Shown here piece by piece: positions 10,877 through 22,310 of a stretch of 24,233 bases of DNA; the stretch's first letter is position 1; each line of letters opens with the position of its first letter. This DNA is from an uncultured archaeon (lineage in GTDB: Archaea > Asgardarchaeota > Jordiarchaeia > Jordiarchaeales > Jordiarchaeaceae). Under the pieces are notes generated by a model. That model was not told where the DNA came from and did not search any database. It saw nothing but the letters and a program-made list of their open reading frames with translations. The DNA is taken from contig CAZECW010000032.1 in NCBI GenBank assembly GCA_964510585.1, positions 1 to 24,233 on the forward strand, read 5' to 3'. A program made the position numbers and the translations under genes.

Positions 10877-10912
10877 AAGAGTTTGAAAAAATCATTTCGG
10901 ATGGTGTTTATT

Positions 10913-11539
10913 TTGAATGATTTGGTGGATTTGATAGTAAGTCTCGATGAAAAGGGTGCGGTGGAACTAGTTAGGAGTATGATTGAGAAGGACGTAGACC
11001 CCTTAAAAATTTTAGAACAAGTGAGAACCGCCATGGCTAAAGTGGGAGAAAAATTTGAGAAGAATGAATTTTTTCTTCCAGACCTAATCATGTCCGGCGA
11101 GATTTTGAGACAAATAACCGAAATTGTAAAACCAAAAATCAAATCCAATGCTAATATCAAGACTTTGGGGAAGGTGGTTCTAGGGACAGTCAGTGGGGAT
11201 ATTCACGATATAGGAAAGGACATTGTGAAATTCATGCTAGACGCCAACGGTTTCGAAGTCATCGACTTAGGTGTGGATGTAGCCAAAGAAAAATTCGTGG
11301 AAAAAATCAAGGAATCGGATGCTAAAATCCTAGCCCTCAGCGGTTTCCTCACGTTGTCCTATGACTCAATGAAGGAAACCATAGCGGAAATCAAGAGAGC
11401 GGGATTAAGAGATAAGATTAAGATAATGATTGGTGGCGGACAGGTGGATGAAAACATAAGAAGGTATGTGGAGGCAGATGCCTACGGTAAAGACGCCGTA
11501 GAAGCCGTAGCATTAGCTAAGAAGTGGGCAGGTGCTTAA
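10913..11539 (+). CDS. Methyltransferase corrinoid (B12-binding) protein
   Basis: N-terminal cap domain (FFLPDLIMSGE), DIHDIGK base-off/His-on motif, LSGFLT and IGGG. Start moved from 10883 to TTG 10913 (GGTG upstream, TATA position). Confidence 0.94.
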   Translation: MNDLVDLIVSLDEKGAVELVRSMIEKDVDPLKILEQVRTAMAKVGEKFEKNEFFLPDLIMSGEILRQITEIVKPKIKSNANIKTLGKVVLGTVSGDIHDIGKDIVKFMLDANGFEVIDLGVDVAKEKFVEKIKESDAKILALSGFLTLSYDSMKETIAEIKRAGLRDKIKIMIGGGQVDENIRRYVEADAYGKDAVEAVALAKKWAGA

Positions 11540-11540
11540 A

Positions 11541-12794
11541 ATGTCAAAGACGCCTGAAGAATTGTATAAGGAGAGAGAGCAGAGGTGGAACGACACCGTA
11601 GCTCTCAAGGAGCCGGATAGGGTTCCTCTATGTCCATTCGTCAATTTTTGGCCTGCGCGTTATAAAGGGTTAAGCTTTAAGGAAGCAATGTTTGACCACC
11701 CTAGGGCTGCGAACGCCTTTAAAGAAACAGTCTTAGAATTTGATTGGGATATGGCGCCTTCAATGCTACCTATGTTTTCAGGGAACGTTTTCAAGAATTT
11801 GAAGTTAAGGATTTTAAAGGTTCCCGGAATAGACCTCCCAGATAATGTAAACTTCCAAGCCGTTGAAATAGAGCATATGAAGGCAGAAGATTACAAGGAA
11901 TTCTTTGCCAATCCCGCAGATTTTGTAATAAGAAAGTATCTTCCCAGTGTTTTCGGAATATTCGAATTCCTAAAAACAATTCCCGAAATTAATTCATTTA
12001 TGGGCTTGGGTGGAGTTTTAACAATCCCCTTGACTGCGGTTTCTCCAGATTTTGCACAGGCTATGGAGAATCTGAAAAAAGCGGGCGAGGCTCTCTTACA
12101 GTGGATGGGAGTACAAATGAGTTATGAAACAGAGATGAAAAATCTTGGCTATCCCATACAGGTGAACGCCTTTGCACAGTCCCCCTTCGACGTGGTTTCT
12201 GACTACGTGAGAGGAATGCGGGGCACAATGCTTGACATGTACCGAAATCCCGAAGAACTAAAACACTTAATACGATTAATTGAACCATACCAAGCACAGG
12301 CGGCTATATCTATGGCTAAAACTTATGGAAACCCCCGCGTTTTCATCCCCCTCCACCGCGGAGCGGGGGGATTCATGAATAACGATCAATTTGCAGAATT
12401 CTATTGGCCAAGCTTAAAAAAACTGTTGCTTGACCTTGTTGATGCGGGACTACAACCTATGCCCTTCTTTGAAGGCGATTATACCCCCCGTCTAGAGTTC
12501 TTAAAAGAGCTTCCCAAAGGAAAAATCATAGCATGGATGGACAAAGCTGACATTTTCAAGGCAAAGAAGGAAATCGGAGACAGAATCTGCCTCAAGGGAA
12601 ATATACCGGCATCACTATTCATAGCTGGAACACCCACCCAGATGGAGGAGTATTGCAAAAAACTAATCGACGAGGTAGGTGAGGGCGGAGGATTCATGAT
12701 TGATGGAGCCCTGGGCATACCTGACGAGGCAAAACCAGAAAATGTTAGAACAATGACCGAAGTAACCAAGAAATACGGTGTATACAGAAAATAA
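11541..12794 (+). CDS. Uroporphyrinogen decarboxylase (UroD/MtaA-CmuA) family protein, probable corrinoid-dependent methyltransferase
   Basis: EPDRVP N-terminal motif, PFDVVSDYVRG, FIPLHRG, QFAEFYWP, CLKGNIP and GGGFMI; starts 2 nt after the corrinoid gene stop. Confidence 0.85.
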   Translation: MSKTPEELYKEREQRWNDTVALKEPDRVPLCPFVNFWPARYKGLSFKEAMFDHPRAANAFKETVLEFDWDMAPSMLPMFSGNVFKNLKLRILKVPGIDLPDNVNFQAVEIEHMKAEDYKEFFANPADFVIRKYLPSVFGIFEFLKTIPEINSFMGLGGVLTIPLTAVSPDFAQAMENLKKAGEALLQWMGVQMSYETEMKNLGYPIQVNAFAQSPFDVVSDYVRGMRGTMLDMYRNPEELKHLIRLIEPYQAQAAISMAKTYGNPRVFIPLHRGAGGFMNNDQFAEFYWPSLKKLLLDLVDAGLQPMPFFEGDYTPRLEFLKELPKGKIIAWMDKADIFKAKKEIGDRICLKGNIPASLFIAGTPTQMEEYCKKLIDEVGEGGGFMIDGALGIPDEAKPENVRTMTEVTKKYGVYRK

Positions 12795-12839: not shown

Positions 12840-13042
12840 CATAAAACTCAGACTCTACCTGTTTTAACGGTAATTTAAAGTTCAAAGTAGTCTCTTTAAA
12901 TAATAGATTTTTGAATAGTTACAACCTTTTCTTAAAATTCTGAGAAACAGTATATGTGAGGAGAAGGCAGATACCTAATATCCAATCTTTAAGATACTAA
13001 ATAATGGAAGACTTATCTACGGACGGAAGACAACTTAAGGGA

Positions 13043-13200
13043 TTGACACTTCCCTCGACTGAGGTCGGGGGGATTCTTGCACACAGCCTCCTCAACACTC
13101 GGGGATACATTCGTTTAAGCGTTCATCCCTTCACAGCTTAAGCGGCTATCTGCAATGGGTGTACCACCACCCAGTTAACGCAGCCTCCGTTGAGGTGGCC
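13043..13200 (-). ncRNA. Putative TnpB omegaRNA (reRNA)-like scaffold
   Basis: Nested complementarities upstream of the right end: CCTCAAC/GTTGAGG (13189-13195 with 13090-13096), TGGGTG/CACCCA, GGGAT/ATCCC. Position matches where TnpB guide scaffolds are encoded. Expression not shown. Confidence 0.45.
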
Positions 13201-13375
13201 TGTATTTAATATTTATTTCTGTGCTCGAATCTTCTCTGTCTGTTTCGGCTTGGAGCCTTATTTGAGCCTTTGGTCATCCAGGCCACATTCAACAGTGGGT
13301 GCCGGAGAACCCTTTAAATCTTCTGTCCATTCATTCCCGCGATTAAAGTCTGGGGCTTTCTGGGCACCTGTATTT
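13043..13375 (-). mobile_element. 333-bp non-autonomous IS200/IS605 (IS608-like) element with both ends
   Basis: Left end on minus: TTAC (13376-13379) | 16 nt | AAAG (13356-13359) CCCCAGACTTTAATCGCGGGA. Right end: GAAT (13073-13076) CCCCCCGAC-CTCA-GTCGAGGGAAGTG TCAA (13043-13046). No tnpA or tnpB ORF inside. Confidence 0.85.
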
Positions 13376-13694
13376 GTAAAATTTTCAGAATATAACCGAA
13401 TATTTTTGAATAAAGCAAAATTTTGTAATTAAAAATGGTAGTAATAAAAAAATATTGAAAATAAGTGTGTCGGGAGGGGGATTTGGTATATTTACTGTGT
13501 CTTTTAATGTTTGTTGTGTATTTTTGTAACTTTATGTTTGGAGATTGATTTTTTAAGTGTAAATGCCGATTTTAAGGTTTTAAGGGGTGGGATTGAGGCG
13601 GTCTCCACACAAATCTGAACCTGTTTGGAATAGATAACGCTAATTAATTGTATCGATGGCTTACGTTTTTGGTTGAGGTAGTGGTGCAGAGAGT

Positions 13695-14114
13695 TTAGGT
13701 TATGTCTATGATTTTTATTTTGAAGTTTAGGGTTTGCCCGGCTAGTGGGTGGTTTAAGTCAATAGTTACTTCTTCGTCTGTTACTTCTGCTATTTCTGCT
13801 GGTATTTGTGCTCCTTCTGGGGTTCTTAGTATAAGTATCATTCCCACATCTGCTTCTGGGGGAAGTTTCTCTCTTGGAATTCTTCTTAGTAACTCGGGAT
13901 CGTATTCTCCATAAGCGTCTTTTGGCTCAACGCTGAACTCTTTTTCTTCTCCTTTTTCCATCCCTATGACTGCTTGATCAAAACCCTTTATGATTCTCCC
14001 GGAACCAACTTCAAACTCTAATGGCTCCCTTCCTTCAGATGAATCAAAAATGGTTCCATCCTCTAACATTCCAGTATATTCAACTTTTACTATATCTCCT
14101 TTCTTAATTGGCAT
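13695..14114 (-). CDS. FKBP-type peptidyl-prolyl isomerase (short archaeal/SlyD-like with IF domain, no His-rich tail)
   Basis: VKVEYTGMLEDGTIFDSS, GFDQAVIGM, AYGEYD and DLNHPLAGQTLNF; AGGAG before the ATG. Confidence 0.96.
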   Translation of the reverse strand: MPIKKGDIVKVEYTGMLEDGTIFDSSEGREPLEFEVGSGRIIKGFDQAVIGMEKGEEKEFSVEPKDAYGEYDPELLRRIPREKLPPEADVGMILILRTPEGAQIPAEIAEVTDEEVTIDLNHPLAGQTLNFKIKIIDIT

Positions 14115-14420
14115 AAGTATAAACTCCTACATTTTGAAAATAAGCAAAAAAAGCGTATAGGAACGACTTTTCAGCTTATTTATAATTCAAAATAATATCT
14201 AGGACTTTTAAATGTTTTTTGTTCTTTTCCGCCCTGTTTTGGAGAAATCTGAAAAAATATTTACATGATGCTAAAATAGGAAAATAAAAAGGGGCCAAAT
14301 TTTCCTAACAAGGAGGGAGTTAGTTAATTTGCTTGTTGTAGTAATATTTATATAGTAAATAAAATTTATAACGGTGTTAACCCCTAAGGGGCATATAAGT
14401 GAAAGTTTGAGGTTGAAGTA

Positions 14421-15849: not shown

Positions 15850-17619
15850 ATGGTTGTTGTTAATGGAGCTCAGCTCATAGTTAGGGCTCTCAAGAATCAG
15901 AATGTGAAGGTTATTTTTACCCTCTGCGGCGACGACGACCTGATTTATAACTACTGTGAGGATGCAGGTATCCGCCTCATAGACTTTAGACACGAGCAAG
16001 CTACCGGTCATGCAGCTCAAGGTTGGTTCATTGCCACGGGCGAGGTTGGCGTATGTCTGGTGCAGTCGGGTCCCGGAGTAACTGATCTTGCTCCATCGAT
16101 TACCGTAGCTTATCAGGAGTGCATTCCAGTTGTGGCTCTAGCTACACACCCCCCTCTCATGAGTGTTGAGAAGTGTACTGTAAACGAGTTTGACGCAGCG
16201 AAAATGTATAGCTCCTTTACCAAGTGGAGCGGATTCTGCTACGAGACCGCCCGGCTACCCGAATACATTAACATGTGTTTCCGAATAGCCGCTGGCGGTA
16301 GACCGGGGCCAGTGCTTCTGAATATTCCCGTGGATGTGATGGTTAAAGAGTGTGACGACCGTTTAGAATGTGTGCAAAACTGTTTCCAACCCATGGAGAA
16401 AAACAGGACGCTGATTCGGCCGCATGGAGACCCAGAAGCTATCAGGAAGGCTCTCAAACTTTTGCTTAACGCTAAGAGGCCCATAATTATGCTGGGCAGT
16501 GGGGCTGGGTTCGCCAACGCTGGTGAAGAGGCCAGAAAGTTTGTGGAGTTAACAAAGATTCCAGTGGGTGCCTGGGGTTGGGGCCAAGGGCTAATCCCAG
16601 ATGATCACCCTCTATGCTTCGGCTTGGCGAGCATTATGGAGGGGCCAGGTCAGGTAATGCTTCCAGTAGCGGATGTGGCTTTAGTGGTGGGTTTAAGGTA
16701 CACCGACCTTTTTGGATACGGCCAACCACCGTTTTTCGCGCCTGACGTCAAAATTATACAGGTAGACATATGTGCTGAAGAAATTGGAAGAAATAGACCC
16801 GTGGAGATTGGCATTGTGGGGGACGCCAAAGCAGTTCTATCACAGTTCTACCAGCAGGCTAAAGAAATTCTCAAGGAGCCACGACCCGAAACTGATTGGG
16901 TGGAAAAAATGCGGGTGGAGAAGCAGAAATTTGAGGAAAGAATAGCCAAGGATGGTTCCAGTGATGATATTCCAATTAAACCCCAAAGGTTGGCTAAGGA
17001 GATTAGGGAATTTATGCCAAGGGATGGCATTATAATTCTGGATGGGGGCGATACCACAGTTTGGGGATTGATGTATCTTAGAGCCTACTATCCCAAACAC
17101 TTATACTTTTCAGGCGGCCTCTATATTCAACACTTGGGCGGCGGAGTACCTATGGCAATAGCGGCAAAGGCAGCAAACCCAGAAAAAAAGGTTCTAGTTT
17201 ACACGGGTGATGGATCCTTCCTATTTAACGGGAAGGAGATAGACACTGCAAGAAGGCACGACCTCCCCTTCGTCACAGTTATCCATAATGATTGCCAGTG
17301 GGGAATGGTGGCCCGAATCCAAAGGTTAGCCCACGGACCCAAGTTCTACGGGCTAGGGTCAAAACTCAGTTCTAAAACCCGCTATGACAAGTACGCTGAA
17401 GCCTTCGATTGCTACGGGGAACTGGTCACAGACCCCAAAGAGATTAAACCCGCACTAAAAAGAGCTTTTGACTCCGGGGTACCAGCAATTGTTGATGTAC
17501 GCATTGACCCAGACGTGGAAACAATTCTAGATTATCTGTGGGCGGGTGCCTACAATCCCGCTACATACGAAAGAACAGTCCCCGAAAAACCACCAGAAGC
17601 CATTACCCCTGTACGGTAA
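15850..17619 (+). CDS. Thiamine diphosphate-dependent enzyme (acetolactate synthase large subunit / 2-hydroxyacyl-CoA lyase / benzaldehyde lyase superfamily)
   Basis: RHEQ catalytic Glu, SGPG, GRPGPVLL, DGGD, GDGSF-x(n)-HND ThDP/Mg motif and WGMV; 589 aa. Confidence 0.92.
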   Translation: MVVVNGAQLIVRALKNQNVKVIFTLCGDDDLIYNYCEDAGIRLIDFRHEQATGHAAQGWFIATGEVGVCLVQSGPGVTDLAPSITVAYQECIPVVALATHPPLMSVEKCTVNEFDAAKMYSSFTKWSGFCYETARLPEYINMCFRIAAGGRPGPVLLNIPVDVMVKECDDRLECVQNCFQPMEKNRTLIRPHGDPEAIRKALKLLLNAKRPIIMLGSGAGFANAGEEARKFVELTKIPVGAWGWGQGLIPDDHPLCFGLASIMEGPGQVMLPVADVALVVGLRYTDLFGYGQPPFFAPDVKIIQVDICAEEIGRNRPVEIGIVGDAKAVLSQFYQQAKEILKEPRPETDWVEKMRVEKQKFEERIAKDGSSDDIPIKPQRLAKEIREFMPRDGIIILDGGDTTVWGLMYLRAYYPKHLYFSGGLYIQHLGGGVPMAIAAKAANPEKKVLVYTGDGSFLFNGKEIDTARRHDLPFVTVIHNDCQWGMVARIQRLAHGPKFYGLGSKLSSKTRYDKYAEAFDCYGELVTDPKEIKPALKRAFDSGVPAIVDVRIDPDVETILDYLWAGAYNPATYERTVPEKPPEAITPVR

Positions 17620-17620
17620 T

Positions 17621-17643
17621 TCTCCTACTTTTCTTCTTTTTTT
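17621..17643 (+). terminator. C-rich plus T-tract terminator
   Basis: TCTCCTACTTTTCTTCTTTTTTT immediately after the stop at 17619. Confidence 0.55.
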
Positions 17644-17762
17644 GAGGTGACTCTTTAAATTTGTATATTTTTTCGAAGTGATGTTTAATATTTAGCCTAA
17701 TAATGTTTAAATAATTTTTAATAGAATTTAAATTGAATTTACTAATTTTTGGGGTGGTTTGT

Positions 17763-19223
17763 TTGGAGGAATTTGGAGAGTTGAAGGGAATTGTTGGTGT
17801 CGAAAATGTAGTTGAAGATCCAGAAATACTGGATAATTACTCTAGGGATTATAGCTTTGTTCCGCAGAGAAAGCCCATGTGTGTGGTTTTTCCCAAGGAT
17901 GTTTTTGAGATTCAGAAGATTGTCAAATGGTCAAATGAGCAAGGAATTCCGTTGACGCCTATTAGTTCTCCCGGTGGTCCGAGGTTGCGTGGGGACACTA
18001 TTCCGAGCCTTGGAGGTATGATTGTAAATCTGTGTAGAATGAACAGAATTTTGAGAATTGACAGACGAAACAAGGTGGCTATGATTGAGCCGGGAGTGAC
18101 TTTTGATCAACTCAGAAGTGAACTGGAGAAGTATGGCTTGAGGCCCTATACGCCGCTATTGCCACGTTCTACAAAGTCTGTGTTGACCAGCTATCTTGAG
18201 AGGGAACCCATCACCATACCAAAAGATCACTGGGATATGCTTGACCCTCTATTTTGTATAGAGGTGGTTTTTGGAACTTGTGACATTTTAAGAACGGGCG
18301 AGGCTTCGGGTCCAGGAACGGTGGAGGATCTTTTGGCTGCGGGTTCCGCACTGAAGAGTGCGATGGGGCCGGGTGGTTTTGACCCCGTTAGGCTTGTTCA
18401 GGGTGCTCAGGGGACGCTGGGTATTGTTTCTTGGGCAACTGTGGGGGTTGGGTTACTGCCGAGTCTTGAGAGGCTTTTCTTTGTATCTTCAGACAGTATT
18501 GAGAGTCTGATTGAGTTTGCGTACCGTGTCTTAAGGCGGCGCCTGGGCGAAGAATTATTCCTGGTAAACAACTTCTATCTAGCCAATATGGTTGCTGAGA
18601 AATCGGAGGAGATAGCGAAGCTTTCCAGCGATTTGCCAAAATGGGTGCTTATTCTTAATATTTCCGGGTTTGACAAGTTCGCTGAGGAGAGGGTGGAGTA
18701 TCAGGAGAAGGATTCTAGGGAAATTGCTCAGCAACTTGGGTTAGAGCTTCAGACATCAATTTCGGGAATTAGTGGTGATGAGGTACTCAAAGTTTTGAGA
18801 AGTTCTTCCCGAGAATATTGGAAATTCAGGTACAAAGGGTGTTGCCAGGAAATATTCTTCTTAACCATGTTAAATAGAACAGTGAATTTCATTGAGGCAA
18901 TGTACAAGATGGCTGAAGCGGACGAATATCCCAAAACTGAACTCGGAGTATACATACAACCGCTAATGCAGGGTGTGGGGTGCCACTGTGAATTCGACCT
19001 AATGTATAACCCAACTGATGGGGAAGAGAGGGAAAGGATTAAGGGATTGTTTATTCGGGCTAGTGAGAACTTGATAAGTTCGGGGGCGTTTTTCAGCAGA
19101 CCTTATGGTCCCTGGGCGGATATGGTTTACAGTAGGGATGCTGAAACCACTATAGCTCTTAGGAAAGTTAAGGAGCTATTTGATCCAAAGGGAATAATGA
19201 ATCCGGGTAAATTGTGTTTTTAG
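17763..19223 (+). CDS. FAD-binding oxidoreductase (VAO/PCMH-type FAD-binding fold), subunit 1
   Basis: MNRILRID...IEPGVT, IEVV..T.DILRTG, GTLGIV and C-terminal KELFDPKGIMNPGK. Start moved to TTG 17763 (GGGGTGG upstream). Confidence 0.88.
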   Translation: MEEFGELKGIVGVENVVEDPEILDNYSRDYSFVPQRKPMCVVFPKDVFEIQKIVKWSNEQGIPLTPISSPGGPRLRGDTIPSLGGMIVNLCRMNRILRIDRRNKVAMIEPGVTFDQLRSELEKYGLRPYTPLLPRSTKSVLTSYLEREPITIPKDHWDMLDPLFCIEVVFGTCDILRTGEASGPGTVEDLLAAGSALKSAMGPGGFDPVRLVQGAQGTLGIVSWATVGVGLLPSLERLFFVSSDSIESLIEFAYRVLRRRLGEELFLVNNFYLANMVAEKSEEIAKLSSDLPKWVLILNISGFDKFAEERVEYQEKDSREIAQQLGLELQTSISGISGDEVLKVLRSSSREYWKFRYKGCCQEIFFLTMLNRTVNFIEAMYKMAEADEYPKTELGVYIQPLMQGVGCHCEFDLMYNPTDGEERERIKGLFIRASENLISSGAFFSRPYGPWADMVYSRDAETTIALRKVKELFDPKGIMNPGKLCF

Positions 19224-19233
19224 GAGGGATTGG

Positions 19234-20532
19234 ATGAGTTTGGAAAAATATCATGTTCAGACGTTAAGGTGCAATAGGTGCTCTTTGTGCAAATGGGTTC
19301 CCCAACCGAAAATTGCCAGCTGGAGATTCTCCGCCGCCTGTCCCAGCATCCAGAAGTACAATTTCCACGCTTACTCCGGAGGAGGCCGAATAATTATAGC
19401 TTGTGCCCTTTTGGAGAACAAAATAGATTATACAGATGAGCTAGTCAAAATCGTTTATACGTGTAGTATGTGTGGTGCCTGCGATGTTTCTTGCAAAATG
19501 AACTATGGGGGAAACTTGGAGCCTCTTGAGATAATGCATGCGCTTAGGGTTAAGTGTGTGGAAAAGGGAAGGATTCCAACAAGACATAAGACCCTGCTAG
19601 AAGACATTAGAGAATATGATAATCCCTATAGGGAGCCGAGGAAGAAACGGGGGGAATGGGCAGAGGGAATGGGCATTAAAGACCTGTCTCATGAAACAGC
19701 AGAGGTACTATATTATGTGGGATGCACCTCGGCCTATCGACTTCCAGGTTTAGCCAGAACCACGGCCACCATCCTTCAGAATGCGGGAGTAGATTTTGGA
19801 ATCTTGGGAAAAGATGAACTATGCTGTGCAAGCACTGCATACAAAATTGGAGACGAAGCACTAATGGAAGAATACGCTAAAAATAATATTGAGAAATTCA
19901 ACAACCTCGGTGTAAAAGAGGTAGTAACTTCCTGTGCCGGTTGCTATCACATGTTTAAATCCTATTATCCGCTAATAGGAGAAATGAATTTCGATGTCTT
20001 TCACATTACAGAGTACATTGAGCGACTTATGAGGGATGGCAGGATAAAACTCTCAAAAAAGATTCCCATTAAGGCTACCTACCATGATCCTTGCCACTTG
20101 GGCAGACTAGCGGAGCCCCGTGTGCCCTGGAATGGTGTGGAAAAGAAGGTTATGGGACAATTGATAATAACTGATCCACCTAAAGAAGTCAGATTCGGAG
20201 TTAAAGGCGTTTTCGATCCACCCAGAAACATACTAAAAGGTATTCCAGGGCTAGAATTTGTGGAAATGGAGAGAATCAGAGAGTATTCCTGGTGTTGCGG
20301 TTCAGGCGGGGGAGTAAAAGCAGCATTCCCCGAGCTCGCCTCTTTTGCTGCCGCTGAAAGAATAGAGGAAGCAAATGCAACTGGGGCAGAAGCACTGGTC
20401 ACGGCTTGCCCCTTCTGTGAAATAAATCTAGGAGACGCCATAAGAGAGCGTAGAGAGAAAATTAAATTGTATGATATAGTAGAGCTGGTACTTGAGGCGA
20501 TGCATGAAGAGGGAGTTAAAGGAGGGCAATAA
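19234..20532 (+). CDS. Fe-S oxidoreductase, HdrD/GlpC/GlcF-like (two 4Fe-4S motifs plus two CCG domains)
   Basis: CNRCSLC...CP, CSMCGACDVSC, GC...CCAS...CAGC and HDPCHLG...CCGSGGG...CPFC. Confidence 0.92.
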   Translation: MSLEKYHVQTLRCNRCSLCKWVPQPKIASWRFSAACPSIQKYNFHAYSGGGRIIIACALLENKIDYTDELVKIVYTCSMCGACDVSCKMNYGGNLEPLEIMHALRVKCVEKGRIPTRHKTLLEDIREYDNPYREPRKKRGEWAEGMGIKDLSHETAEVLYYVGCTSAYRLPGLARTTATILQNAGVDFGILGKDELCCASTAYKIGDEALMEEYAKNNIEKFNNLGVKEVVTSCAGCYHMFKSYYPLIGEMNFDVFHITEYIERLMRDGRIKLSKKIPIKATYHDPCHLGRLAEPRVPWNGVEKKVMGQLIITDPPKEVRFGVKGVFDPPRNILKGIPGLEFVEMERIREYSWCCGSGGGVKAAFPELASFAAAERIEEANATGAEALVTACPFCEINLGDAIRERREKIKLYDIVELVLEAMHEEGVKGGQ

Positions 20533-20533
20533 G

Positions 20534-22114
20534 ATGGTTTTGGAGAAAAAGGTTTACAAAATGTTGGAGTCAGTTGTGGGACCTGAGAACATTTCGGATG
20601 ATCCAATAATAACAACGGTGTACTCCTATCAATACTTGGCGGATTTAGCGAATCCCGACTCAGCTAAGTGGATGCCCGCGAAACCCGAGGCTGTGATTTT
20701 ACCAGGAAGCACCGAGGAGATTCAGGAAATAGTGAGAATATGTAACAAGCATAATGTGAAGATAAAGCCACACAGCACCGGTTGGGGTTTTTGGAGCGGC
20801 ATTGTAACTTCGGGCGTCATACAGATGGATTTGAGAAGAATGAATAGGATAATTGAGATTGATGAGAAAAACATGTACGCGGTGGTAGAACCATACGTTA
20901 CGGCTATGCAGCTTCAAATTGAGGCTATGAAGAGGGGGCTGGACTGCGCCATAATAGGCGCCGGACCCAACCACTCCGTTTTAGCTTCTTGCACAGCAAT
21001 GATGGGATACGGGGATAAAGGTTACCACACCAGCATGAACAATCGGAACCTATTGGGAGTAGAATGGGTTACTCCTACAGGTGAAGTTCTAAGACTGGGT
21101 TCGCTGGGTAGCGGAGCAGGCTGGTTCTGCGGTGACGGCCCAGGACCCAGCCTCAGAGGTCTACTAAGAGGATGGCATGGAACAATGGGGGGACTGGGAA
21201 TATTCACCAAGTGCGCCACCAAACTCTATCCTTGGGCTGGCCCAAAGAAACCAGAAATTATGGGTGAAAATCCCCAGTACGGGATGGTGGTTCCAGAGAA
21301 CTTCAAAATATATACTATTTACTGGGAAAATTGGGAGCAGCAGGCTGATGCCATGTATAAGGTTAGTGAGTCCGAAATTGGCTACATTATTTGGAGAGCC
21401 TGTACACCAATGATGATACCACTATTACTGGGAAAAACAAACAATGAGTACTACGAAATGATGAAAGGAATTTACGATATGATAGAAGCCTACAGATACT
21501 ACTTTACTGTCGTTCTAGCCTCTGAATCCAAGCGGGAGTTAGAGTATCAGGAGAAGGTTTTAAAGAGCATAGTGGACGAAACAAATGGGAAATTCTTCGA
21601 ATTTATACTAAGCGAGAATGCGCCTCTAATCCTTCTAGCCATAGTTACCCAGTGTTACAATTCCAGAATTTTTAGGCCCACCGGACAGTTCCACACCTCC
21701 TTTGGAGCAGCCACATCTTGGGACATGTCAGTGAAAGGAGCAAAAATAGGAGAACAAATCAGAAGGAAATATATTGAGGAGGAAGTGTTTCATGACGACG
21801 GCTGCGGGGAAAACTTCTGGGGAGGCCCATACGAACACAACAAATTCTCTCACTTTGAGGGACTATTTGAATACGACCCCATCGACCCAGAATCCAGAAA
21901 AGCTGCACGCAAATATATAGAAGAAGCCACCATGGCAGTAATTGAAAATAAGATCGGAGTACCAATAGGACCAGGACCGGAATTAGCCCAAATATTTGGG
22001 CCGATCTACGGAAACTTCCACTCATGGCTGGGCAAAATCAAGAAATCCTTTGACCCCAAAAATGTATCAGACCACGCATTCTACGCGGCGCCAGAAGAAA
22101 AAACAAAAGACTAA
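20534..22114 (+). CDS. FAD-binding oxidoreductase (VAO/PCMH-type FAD-binding fold), subunit 2
   Basis: PEAVILPGSTEEIQ, HSTG, DLRRMNRIIEID...VEPYVT, GVEWVTPTGEVLRLG and KKSFDPKN. ATG at 20534 lies 1 nt after the Fe-S gene stop. Confidence 0.88.
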   Translation: MVLEKKVYKMLESVVGPENISDDPIITTVYSYQYLADLANPDSAKWMPAKPEAVILPGSTEEIQEIVRICNKHNVKIKPHSTGWGFWSGIVTSGVIQMDLRRMNRIIEIDEKNMYAVVEPYVTAMQLQIEAMKRGLDCAIIGAGPNHSVLASCTAMMGYGDKGYHTSMNNRNLLGVEWVTPTGEVLRLGSLGSGAGWFCGDGPGPSLRGLLRGWHGTMGGLGIFTKCATKLYPWAGPKKPEIMGENPQYGMVVPENFKIYTIYWENWEQQADAMYKVSESEIGYIIWRACTPMMIPLLLGKTNNEYYEMMKGIYDMIEAYRYYFTVVLASESKRELEYQEKVLKSIVDETNGKFFEFILSENAPLILLAIVTQCYNSRIFRPTGQFHTSFGAATSWDMSVKGAKIGEQIRRKYIEEEVFHDDGCGENFWGGPYEHNKFSHFEGLFEYDPIDPESRKAARKYIEEATMAVIENKIGVPIGPGPELAQIFGPIYGNFHSWLGKIKKSFDPKNVSDHAFYAAPEEKTKD

Positions 22115-22145: not shown

Positions 22146-22165
22146 CCTCACTTTTCTCCTTTTTT
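22146..22165 (+). terminator. C-rich plus T-tract terminator
   Basis: CCTCACTTTTCTCCTTTTTT after the three-gene operon. Confidence 0.5.
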
Positions 22166-22310
22166 AATTTTTTAAAAATATTAGCTCACAAGTCAATTCA
22201 AAGGTAGTTAGTAAATGTGAACCCATAAGAAGTTTTTTAAGTTAGGTGAGCTTCGCGTATTAGATAATTTTTGAAAATTGTTTCATAGCATTAGAGGAGC
22301 GAGTTTGGCA

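Follow-up and report, generated by a model that had tools for sequence, protein, structure and literature searches.

A conserved flavoprotein/iron-sulfur protein/flavoprotein gene triplet of GlcDEF-like architecture in a Jordiarchaeia genome and its possible substrate

Few redox modules of uncultured sediment and hot-spring archaea and of Dehalococcoidia are as strongly expanded, or as poorly understood, as the gene pairs that combine a FAD_binding_4 flavoprotein with an HdrD-like iron-sulfur (Fe-S) protein, which metabolic reconstructions usually label 'glycolate oxidase' or 'D-lactate dehydrogenase'. Units of this 'HdrD/GlcD' type have been described in Methanomethylicia (formerly Verstraetearchaeota), Bathyarchaeia, and Korarchaeia, where lactate-driven heterodisulfide reduction was proposed (PMC6783470, PMC10667645). 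For the benzene-degrading Desulfobacterota ORM2a, a trio consisting of an FAD-binding oxidoreductase, an HdrD-like (Fe-S) protein, and a second FAD-binding oxidoreductase (proteins #24-26; WAC08368, WAC08369, and WAC08370) was reported in 2026; no proteins were more abundant than these three while benzene was degraded under methanogenic conditions, and a role in benzene activation was proposed for them. In the AlphaFold 3 model, the trio forms a trimer resembling GlcDEF, although its identity to GlcDEF does not exceed 23% (PMC13101534). Here we examine a similar arrangement in a 24,233-nucleotide stretch of DNA (hereafter the window), which is contig C32 in the 3.78-Mb genome of an uncultured archaeon of the Jordiarchaeia. 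Three co-oriented open reading frames on its plus strand, referred to as genes A, B, and C (17763-22114), encode a flavoprotein, an HdrD-like Fe-S protein, and a second flavoprotein, and an earlier note drawn from the sequence had proposed them as a candidate dehydrogenase complex, possibly acting on an alkylphenol or aryl alcohol.

We read A-B-C as a soluble heterotrimeric dehydrogenase of GlcDEF architecture that belongs to a separate family and most likely oxidizes an aromatic alcohol or a benzylic group to an aldehyde, and we give this reading a rough probability of 0.5. Gene A (17763..19223) encodes a 486-residue flavoprotein of the VAO (vanillyl-alcohol oxidase) fold, which is the better conserved subunit and presumably the catalytic one. 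Gene B (19234..20532) encodes a soluble HdrD-like Fe-S protein of 432 residues, and gene C (20534..22114) encodes a 526-residue VAO-fold flavoprotein, a less conserved sister paralogue of A that is presumed to be a GlcE-like partner subunit. The tight coupling of the three genes described in the earlier note was confirmed, as the stop codon of A (TAG, 19221-19223) is separated by 10 nucleotides from the ATG of B at 19234, with a GGAGGG motif overlapping the stop codon of A, and the stop codon of B (TAA, 20530-20532) is separated by 1 nucleotide from the ATG of C at 20534. The TTG start of A at 17763 agrees with the N-terminus of the family and with an upstream GGGGTGG motif; a longer frame of A, beginning at 17733, is likewise open.

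Both A and C match Pfam FAD_binding_4, although to different extents: the match of A spans profile positions 1-87 only and is followed by a weak FAD-oxidase_C tail, whereas that of C spans the full profile (1-139). AlphaFold2 models of the two proteins have pLDDT values of 89.5 (A) and 89 (C), and the mean column identity of the A family is 63%. A conserved motif, H-x-E-(4)-Y-[DN]-P, occupies corresponding places in the alignment of the two subunits. Its H-x-E part is H408-C-E410 in A (18984..18992, plus strand), inside the nearly invariant stretch C407-H-C-E-F411, and H440-F-E442 in C (21851..21859, plus strand); the two coincide in a profile-profile alignment and are at least 90% conserved in the A family and in the C family. 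Two early observations hold, namely that both flavoproteins lack the EHG motif and that they have H-x-E in common. In alignment with mouse D-lactate dehydrogenase (LDHD), H408 of A pairs with the His of 'FHC'; H408, or C407/C409, would be a conceivable site of covalent flavinylation. We placed the subunits in a maximum-likelihood tree that comprised 54 sequences (paralogues from this genome, members of both families, the Agrobacterium vitis proteins, and GlcD and GlcE of E. coli). In this tree, the A proteins and the C proteins each formed a clade with support of 100, and the two clades were sisters with support of 88. E. coli GlcD and GlcE clustered with other paralogues of this genome, apart from the A and C clades, with GlcE sitting on a long branch. 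Since the two clades are separate in this tree, A and C are not nested within GlcD or GlcE clades, and the NCBIfam scores and motif scan given below agree with this placement, which the earlier note had left to a phylogeny. Judged from sequence, the diagnostic markers of the family are the missing EHG, the shared H-x-E, RPY in A, and an insertion of about 34 residues in B.

It is necessary to ask whether the triplet could instead be a divergent D-2-hydroxy-acid dehydrogenase, an analogue of GlcDEF or LctD that acts on lactate, glycolate, mandelate, phenyllactate, or 2-hydroxyglutarate and feeds electrons to B or to an electron-transfer flavoprotein (ETF). By Pfam, the subunit make-up is that of the E. 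coli glcDEF locus, with two FAD_binding_4 proteins and a Fer4/2xCCG protein in one operon. The statement in the earlier note that no characterized complex has this make-up therefore does not hold for the architecture, and an FAD/Fe-S/FAD trimer with the same gene order has been published for the benzene degrader (PMC13101534). The best fold matches of C are LDHD, the list of fold matches includes the Ldh-EtfAB structure 7qh2, and the window encodes, just upstream of A, a thiamine diphosphate (ThDP) enzyme with similarity to 2-oxo-acid decarboxylases or acetolactate synthase. ETF partners are typical for LctD and D-2-hydroxyglutarate dehydrogenase, and among 83 A-B-C loci, over which all neighbor counts in this work were made, ETF genes adjoin the triplet at 28 and TRAP carboxylate transporters at 6. 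However, a regular-expression scan found the metal-binding and catalytic motifs HxGDGNxH and EHG in neither subunit of the four A/C sets that this genome holds; they are also absent at the aligned position in the other A/C family members scanned, and the E-H pair of mouse LDHD falls on the invariant P447-Y448 of A. The scores of all three proteins lie far below the NCBIfam cut-offs: A and C reach 75.1 and 62.8 bits against glcD TIGR00387 (cut-off 567.9), the GlcE model gives 18.3 bits (cut-off 284), and B reaches 47.2 bits against GlcF (cut-off 333). Moreover, five other FAD_binding_4 paralogues of this genome carry both motifs, as does E. coli GlcD, with which they group, so that the hydroxy-acid function appears to be covered already in this organism. 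Aldehyde-oxidizing enzymes, which recur as neighbors of the triplet, would also make more sense if the product were an aldehyde and not a 2-oxo acid. Taken together, a hydroxy-acid dehydrogenase seems to us an unlikely identity for A-B-C.

Subunit B matches Pfam Fer4_8 and two CCG domains, and all 18 cluster-binding Cys residues are present. The eight Cys residues of the ferredoxin domain (13, 16, 19, 36, 77, 80, 83, and 87) are predicted to serve two [4Fe-4S] clusters, and the remainder form two complete five-Cys CCG motifs (164, 197, 198, 234, and 237 in the first; 287, 354, 355, 392, and 395 in the second). B falls under every NCBIfam equivalog cut-off, its best match being TfrB (193 against 385), and its PDB matches are HdrB. 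The second CCG domain contains a family-specific insertion (20110..20211, plus strand; B residues 293-326, about 33-34 residues). Of 72 aligned sequences (69 family B subunits together with the B subunits of the window and of A. vitis and E. coli GlcF), 70 contain it. E. coli GlcF lacks the insertion, as do the other HdrD-like proteins encoded in this genome, and it corresponds to the insertion that the earlier note had estimated at about 30 residues. The second CCG motif itself is intact in 71-72 of the 72 sequences. In the ferredoxin domain, Asp replaces Cys80 in 28% and Cys87 in 15% of the B family (window positions 19471-19473 and 19492-19494), which suggests that some family members have an Asp-ligated cluster or a 3Fe cluster.

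The Fe-S subunit also bears on the possibility that A-B-C is an 'HdrD/GlcD' module of energy metabolism, reducing a heterodisulfide or disulfide carrier with a small organic donor and having no part in aromatic catabolism. B retains both five-Cys CCG motifs, which are the disulfide-reducing clusters in HdrB; it has no membrane-spanning hydrophobic stretch, no HdrE-like membrane protein adjoins it, and no quinone-linked partner is encoded nearby. About 15 FAD_binding_4/HdrD-like pairs occur in this genome, and the literature finds the conservation of such units in non-methanogens 'puzzling' and suggests that other heterodisulfides are involved (PMC10667645, PMC6783470). Contrarily, the family is commonest in bacteria (Dehalococcoidia and Desulfobacterota) and occurs in an aerobic Agrobacterium whose B subunit has lost the Cys residues of the first CCG motif, and the triplet is found within catabolic operons with regulators and transporters. 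We consider a purely energy-metabolic role distinctly unlikely, while noting that as to the electron acceptor it is compatible with the aromatic-alcohol dehydrogenase that we favor.

The three genes very probably encode one complex, as the earlier note had assumed, and this is argued for by conserved synteny, natural A-C fusions, the paralogy of A and C, and a dimer prediction that held up against its controls. The order A-B-C is strict in 54 of the 83 related loci from genomes and metagenomes; at 10 of the remaining loci the contig ends within the triplet region, and the others are rearranged (for example A-Etf-B-C, A-C-B, or A-x-C). The order is retained in a basal clade and on plasmid pAtS4e of A. 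vitis. Four distinct A-C fusion proteins of 1066-1072 residues, with mutual identity of 71-79%, were found, and in an Odinarchaeota metagenome-assembled genome (MAG; JBHLPY010000044.1, locus L106:2246-6711) gene B overlaps by 4 nucleotides the start of a downstream gene for a 1071-residue A-C fusion. Binding of A to C is predicted with a score of 0.94, whereas the best of three controls scored 0.00. Of 80 solved complexes, 58 attain this level, as do 2 of 110 mismatched pairs. The prediction runs share at least 95% of contacts, and partner pLDDT is at least 87. The predicted interface involves the conserved stretches 402-406 and 441-447 of A and the conserved loop 184-217 of C, which is of low confidence when C is modeled alone. 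None of the three proteins contains a membrane-like hydrophobic stretch, and no CxxCH haem-c motif occurs in any open frame of at least 60 residues in the window, so the early description of the complex as cytochrome-free holds over these frames.

Gene neighborhoods provide the main indication of a substrate class. Aldehyde dehydrogenase (8 loci) or AOR (6 loci) adjoins the triplet at 14 of the 83 loci. UbiD was found at 8 loci, UbiX at 5, a URO-D family protein of the same subfamily as the window gene at 11532-12794 at 8, and a pyrogallol-transhydroxylase-like protein at 7. Less frequent neighbors are HpaB-like proteins and acyl-CoA ligases (4 loci each), as well as phosphoenolpyruvate (PEP)-utilizing, phenylphosphate-synthase-like proteins and HGD-D (3 loci each). 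Proteins of the ETF system are more frequent, with EtfB at 28 loci, EtfA at 16, FixC-like proteins at 14, and a FixX-like ferredoxin at 6; ETF or FixC adjoins the triplet at 34 of the 83 loci, which suggests electron exchange with the ETF system in many bacteria. Several individual loci combine these elements. In two Dehalococcoidaceae loci (L055 and L096), the order is DctP-like protein (labeled by BLAST cluster membership), URO-D, UbiD, A, B, C, and aldehyde dehydrogenase. In Thermincola sp. NRBC_bin_10V2 (L073:1396-20708), the triplet is preceded by an IclR regulator and followed by EtfB, EtfA, aldehyde dehydrogenase, CoA ligase, and thiolase. In a Syntrophorhabdales MAG (L049:1472-15666), genes for a PEP-utilizing protein, UPF0261, and three hydantoinase/acetone-carboxylase-type (acetophenone-carboxylase-like) proteins precede A-B-C in this order, and a thiolase-like gene lies downstream. 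By association, such neighborhoods would point to an aldehyde-forming oxidation in anaerobic aromatic catabolism.

Some further features of these loci may be recorded here. In the Thermincola locus, the region 5' of the IclR gene encodes a glycyl-radical enzyme and the corresponding activase, as well as a PrpD-like protein and an MFS transporter. The gene order of the Syntrophorhabdales locus is reminiscent of acetophenone or 4-ethylphenol pathways. Another locus (L004) contains UPF0261, Phenol_MetA_deg, and PPDK/PEP-utilizer genes together with extra copies of A and C.

Several observations weigh against our reading of the triplet, and we set them out together. The first is the limited likeness to the 4-phenol oxidases, relative to which A and C were placed by profile and fold scores alone. 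The best PDB profile scores were 107 bits for A and 109 bits for C (vanillyl-alcohol dehydrogenase and 4-ethylphenol oxidase), as compared with 93 and 79 bits for the family profiles against LDHD. Foldseek TM scores to VAO-type enzymes were 0.78-0.84 for A and 0.67-0.73 for C, and those to LDHD were 0.75-0.77 and 0.69-0.70. Both proteins have the two-domain VAO fold, but with LDHD scoring about equally, the likeness to 4-phenol oxidases is only marginally above that to D-lactate dehydrogenase. The resemblance to VAO and p-cresol methylhydroxylase (PCMH) pointed out in the earlier note is thus, by these scores, no closer than that to D-lactate dehydrogenase. At the level of motifs, its alignment of subunit A was reproduced: GAFFSRPYGPWAD lines up with GYGEYRTHIRYMD of the VAO-type vanillyl-alcohol dehydrogenase, which contains the ...EYRTH... 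motif, and the Arg is retained as the invariant R446, whereas the Tyr position is occupied by S445 (family pattern [SYG]). In C, GPGPSLRG aligns with QLGPSIEG of 4-ethylphenol oxidase. The phenolate-binding triad of VAO and PCMH (Tyr108, Tyr503, and Arg504 in VAO numbering) corresponds in HMMER alignments to 8s7t and 7pbg to R76, S445, and R446 in A; in C, there is a gap at the first position and neither Tyr nor Arg at the others. The Tyr108/Tyr503 site is therefore kept by neither subunit, with A retaining the Arg only. As both phenolate Tyr residues are absent, a quinone-methide mechanism of the PCMH type is not indicated, and the likeness to PCMH is weak at the active site. The proposal of an aryl substrate finds some backing in the lean of the neighborhoods toward aromatic compounds and aldehyde formation.

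The neighborhoods themselves are the second point. Neighbors of aromatic type occur at only 24 of the 83 loci, a count that carries no background rate. In the window, the immediate neighbors of A-B-C are the ThDP enzyme, an LplA-like protein, a haloacid dehalogenase (HAD)-type hydrolase, and a zinc-dependent alcohol dehydrogenase (Zn-ADH), and these do not recur next to the triplet at other loci, with the exception of the HAD and Zn-ADH genes in two near-identical Jordarchaeia loci (L022 and L023). Thirdly, the A-C score may derive in part from solved homodimers of the VAO family. Lastly, the A-B-C family is biochemically uncharacterized.

If our reading of A-B-C as an aromatic-alcohol dehydrogenase is correct, we infer the course of the electrons, their acceptor, and the class of substrate as follows. 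The paralogous VAO-fold subunits A and C would pair as a tight heterodimer, with the substrate site most likely on A, the better conserved subunit. The FAD of A would accept two electrons from a C-H adjacent to oxygen, and the electrons would then pass, perhaps via the FAD of C, to the two cubane and two CCG clusters of B. The final acceptor might be a disulfide or thiol, and in many bacterial relatives it might be the EtfAB/FixCX system. The substrate would be an alcohol or benzylic group of a lignin-derived or phenolic aromatic compound, which would be converted to the aldehyde; one coherent pathway would lead from vanillyl alcohol or creosol via vanillin, vanillate, and protocatechuate to catechol. 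An aromatic alcohol or alkyl compound is our best guess at the substrate, although a tentative one that falls somewhat short of an even chance, and a 2-hydroxy acid comes second as an improbable choice. A broader scenario may also be formulated, in which strict anaerobes such as Asgard archaea, Bathyarchaeia, and Dehalococcoidia oxidize lignin-derived benzylic or aryl-alcohol groups independently of O2 and of cytochromes. Either a CCG disulfide site or EtfAB/FixCX acting as a confurcating system would receive the high-potential electrons, and the 'Magic' trimer of the benzene degrader would be a specialized offshoot of the family; we regard this scenario as doubtful.

The 'Magic' proteins #24-26 of ORM2a suggest a further alternative, in which A-B-C would be a relative of these proteins and would take part in a chemically unusual activation of an unactivated aromatic compound or hydrocarbon instead of a simple dehydrogenation. 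The gene order FAD/(Fe-S) HdrD-like/FAD is the same, and the family of the window is carried by the Thermincola isolate (L073) whose name contains 'NRBC'. In protein #25, however, only two of the five Cys residues of the second CCG motif are retained, and type III CoA-transferases and MaoC are not among the recurrent neighbor clusters examined; a neighborhood with CoA-transferase and MaoC was likewise found in none of the three deeper A clades sampled by context. The mechanism in the original paper is itself speculative (PMC13101534). Such an activation is, in our view, very improbable for the triplet of the window.

The closest proteins, with 92% identity, come from Asgard archaea (Candidatus Freyarchaeota/Jordarchaeum), and the DNA of the window recurs in hot-spring metagenomes of several studies; the sequencing runs listed for it were DNA runs, with no RNA run among them. 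Relatives of A number at least 577 in species-representative genomes, mostly in Dehalococcoidia, with other hosts in Desulfobacterota (including Syntrophorhabdales), Bacillota (including Thermincola), Hadarchaeota, Bathyarchaeia, and Asgard archaea; the family comprises 303 clusters at 50% identity (E<=1e-30). The expectation that such triplets are widespread in anaerobes is borne out, but they are not restricted to them. Plasmid pAtS4e of A. vitis S4, an aerobic and cultured bacterium, carries a 38%-identical triplet (AVI_RS28390-28380; L102:8854-13348; tblastn). A P450 gene lies beside it together with the genes for the cognate ferredoxin and reductase, and other neighbors encode MarR, a porin, an MFS transporter, and an aldehyde dehydrogenase. 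The B subunit of this triplet is the one that lacks the Cys residues of the first CCG motif.

In the Jordiarchaeia genome, FAD_binding_4 frames number about 25. Roughly 15 of them adjoin a gene for an HdrD-like Fer4/CCG protein, and the frames include four A/B/C sets and about 11 further flavoprotein/HdrD-like pairs. Apart from the set in the window (C32, order A-B-C), one set is found on contig C162 (18590-22966, order A-C-B) and two are found on C212, in the orders A-B-C and C-A-B. The expansion extends over contigs C3, C9, C37, C45, C60, C113, C114, C122, C155, C170, C181, C193, C198, C204, C212, and C162. A single EtfAB is encoded in the genome, on C150. Homologues of FixC and FixX and a second FixC-like gene lie at C162:4028-5704 and 13000-14367, on the same contig as the A-C-B set, and the FixC and FixX are 68% and 64% identical, respectively, to those beside a Bathyarchaeia triplet (L001).

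With regard to expression signals, an AT-rich spacer of about 140 nucleotides (17620..17762, plus strand) separates the ThDP-enzyme gene from A. Direct reading of its sequence reveals TATA-like stretches and GGGGTGG as a ribosome-binding motif, and it is probably the promoter region of the operon itself; sigma-70 matches carry no meaning in an archaeon. A T-rich tract downstream of the stop codon of C (22150..22177, plus strand), likewise read directly from the sequence, is a plausible archaeal terminator, while no stem-loop terminator was detected after C in a bacterial-type scan. Thus, the single terminator proposed earlier stands as a T-rich tract at about 22150-22177 and not as a stem-loop.

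Elsewhere in the window, the ThDP enzyme (15850-17619) falls under every cut-off for acetolactate synthase and oxalyl-CoA decarboxylase (best 372 bits against 866), and none of its relatives adjoins A-B-C in the other 83 loci. A URO-D family gene (11532..12794, plus strand), accompanied by a corrinoid protein gene (10883-11539), encodes a protein with 35-41% identity by BLAST to neighbors of A-B-C in eight bacterial loci (L050, L055, L056, L068, L082, L087, L096, and L098).

One large family can now be set apart from the many FAD_binding_4/HdrD-like pairs by its fixed A-B-C make-up, its markers, its fusions, and a context that lies away from lactate and glycolate. If the substrate is aromatic, models of carbon flow for lignin-derived compounds in anoxic sediments would change. 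Moreover, the copy on the A. vitis S4 plasmid offers a cultured host for functional work.

The triplet may be compared with several known systems. With the HdrD/HdrB/TfrB proteins, B shares both five-Cys CCG motifs and the N-terminal ferredoxin domain, but it differs from them in falling below the equivalog cut-offs, in having no HdrE-like partner nearby, in its insertion, and in being partnered by flavoproteins. With the ORM2a 'Magic' trio, compared by gene order and Cys patterns only, A-B-C shares the gene order and the GlcDEF-like architecture predicted for it. That trio comes from an anaerobic degrader of aromatics and is uncharacterized, as is the A-B-C family, but it is flanked by CoA-transferases, MaoC, and an AMP-ligase, and its second CCG motif is degenerate (2/5 Cys), whereas that of B is intact.

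The likeness of A and C to the VAO/PCMH enzymes (VAO, PchF, eugenol oxidase, vanillyl-alcohol dehydrogenase 8s7p, and 4-ethylphenol oxidase 7pbg) lies in the two-domain fold, with TM scores of up to 0.84 for A, and A also has the Arg of their ...YR... motif, although identity is only about 18-21%. PCMH possesses a cytochrome c subunit, in place of which the redox partner here is an HdrD-like Fe-S protein; the PCMH of Geobacter is likewise built with two different alpha subunits. A counterpart in composition is E. coli GlcDEF, which also combines two FAD_binding_4 flavoproteins with a soluble protein containing a 2x[4Fe-4S] ferredoxin domain and two CCG domains, encoded in one operon. The gene order differs (D-E-F in E. 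coli; A-B-C with a central Fe-S gene here), GlcE has 350 residues as compared with 526 in C, and GlcF is without the insertion of about 34 residues carried by B. On the evidence of these sequences, the cytochrome-free alpha/alpha'/beta flavoenzyme complex can be taken as real, conserved, and a family of its own, with an architecture that is itself known from GlcDEF.

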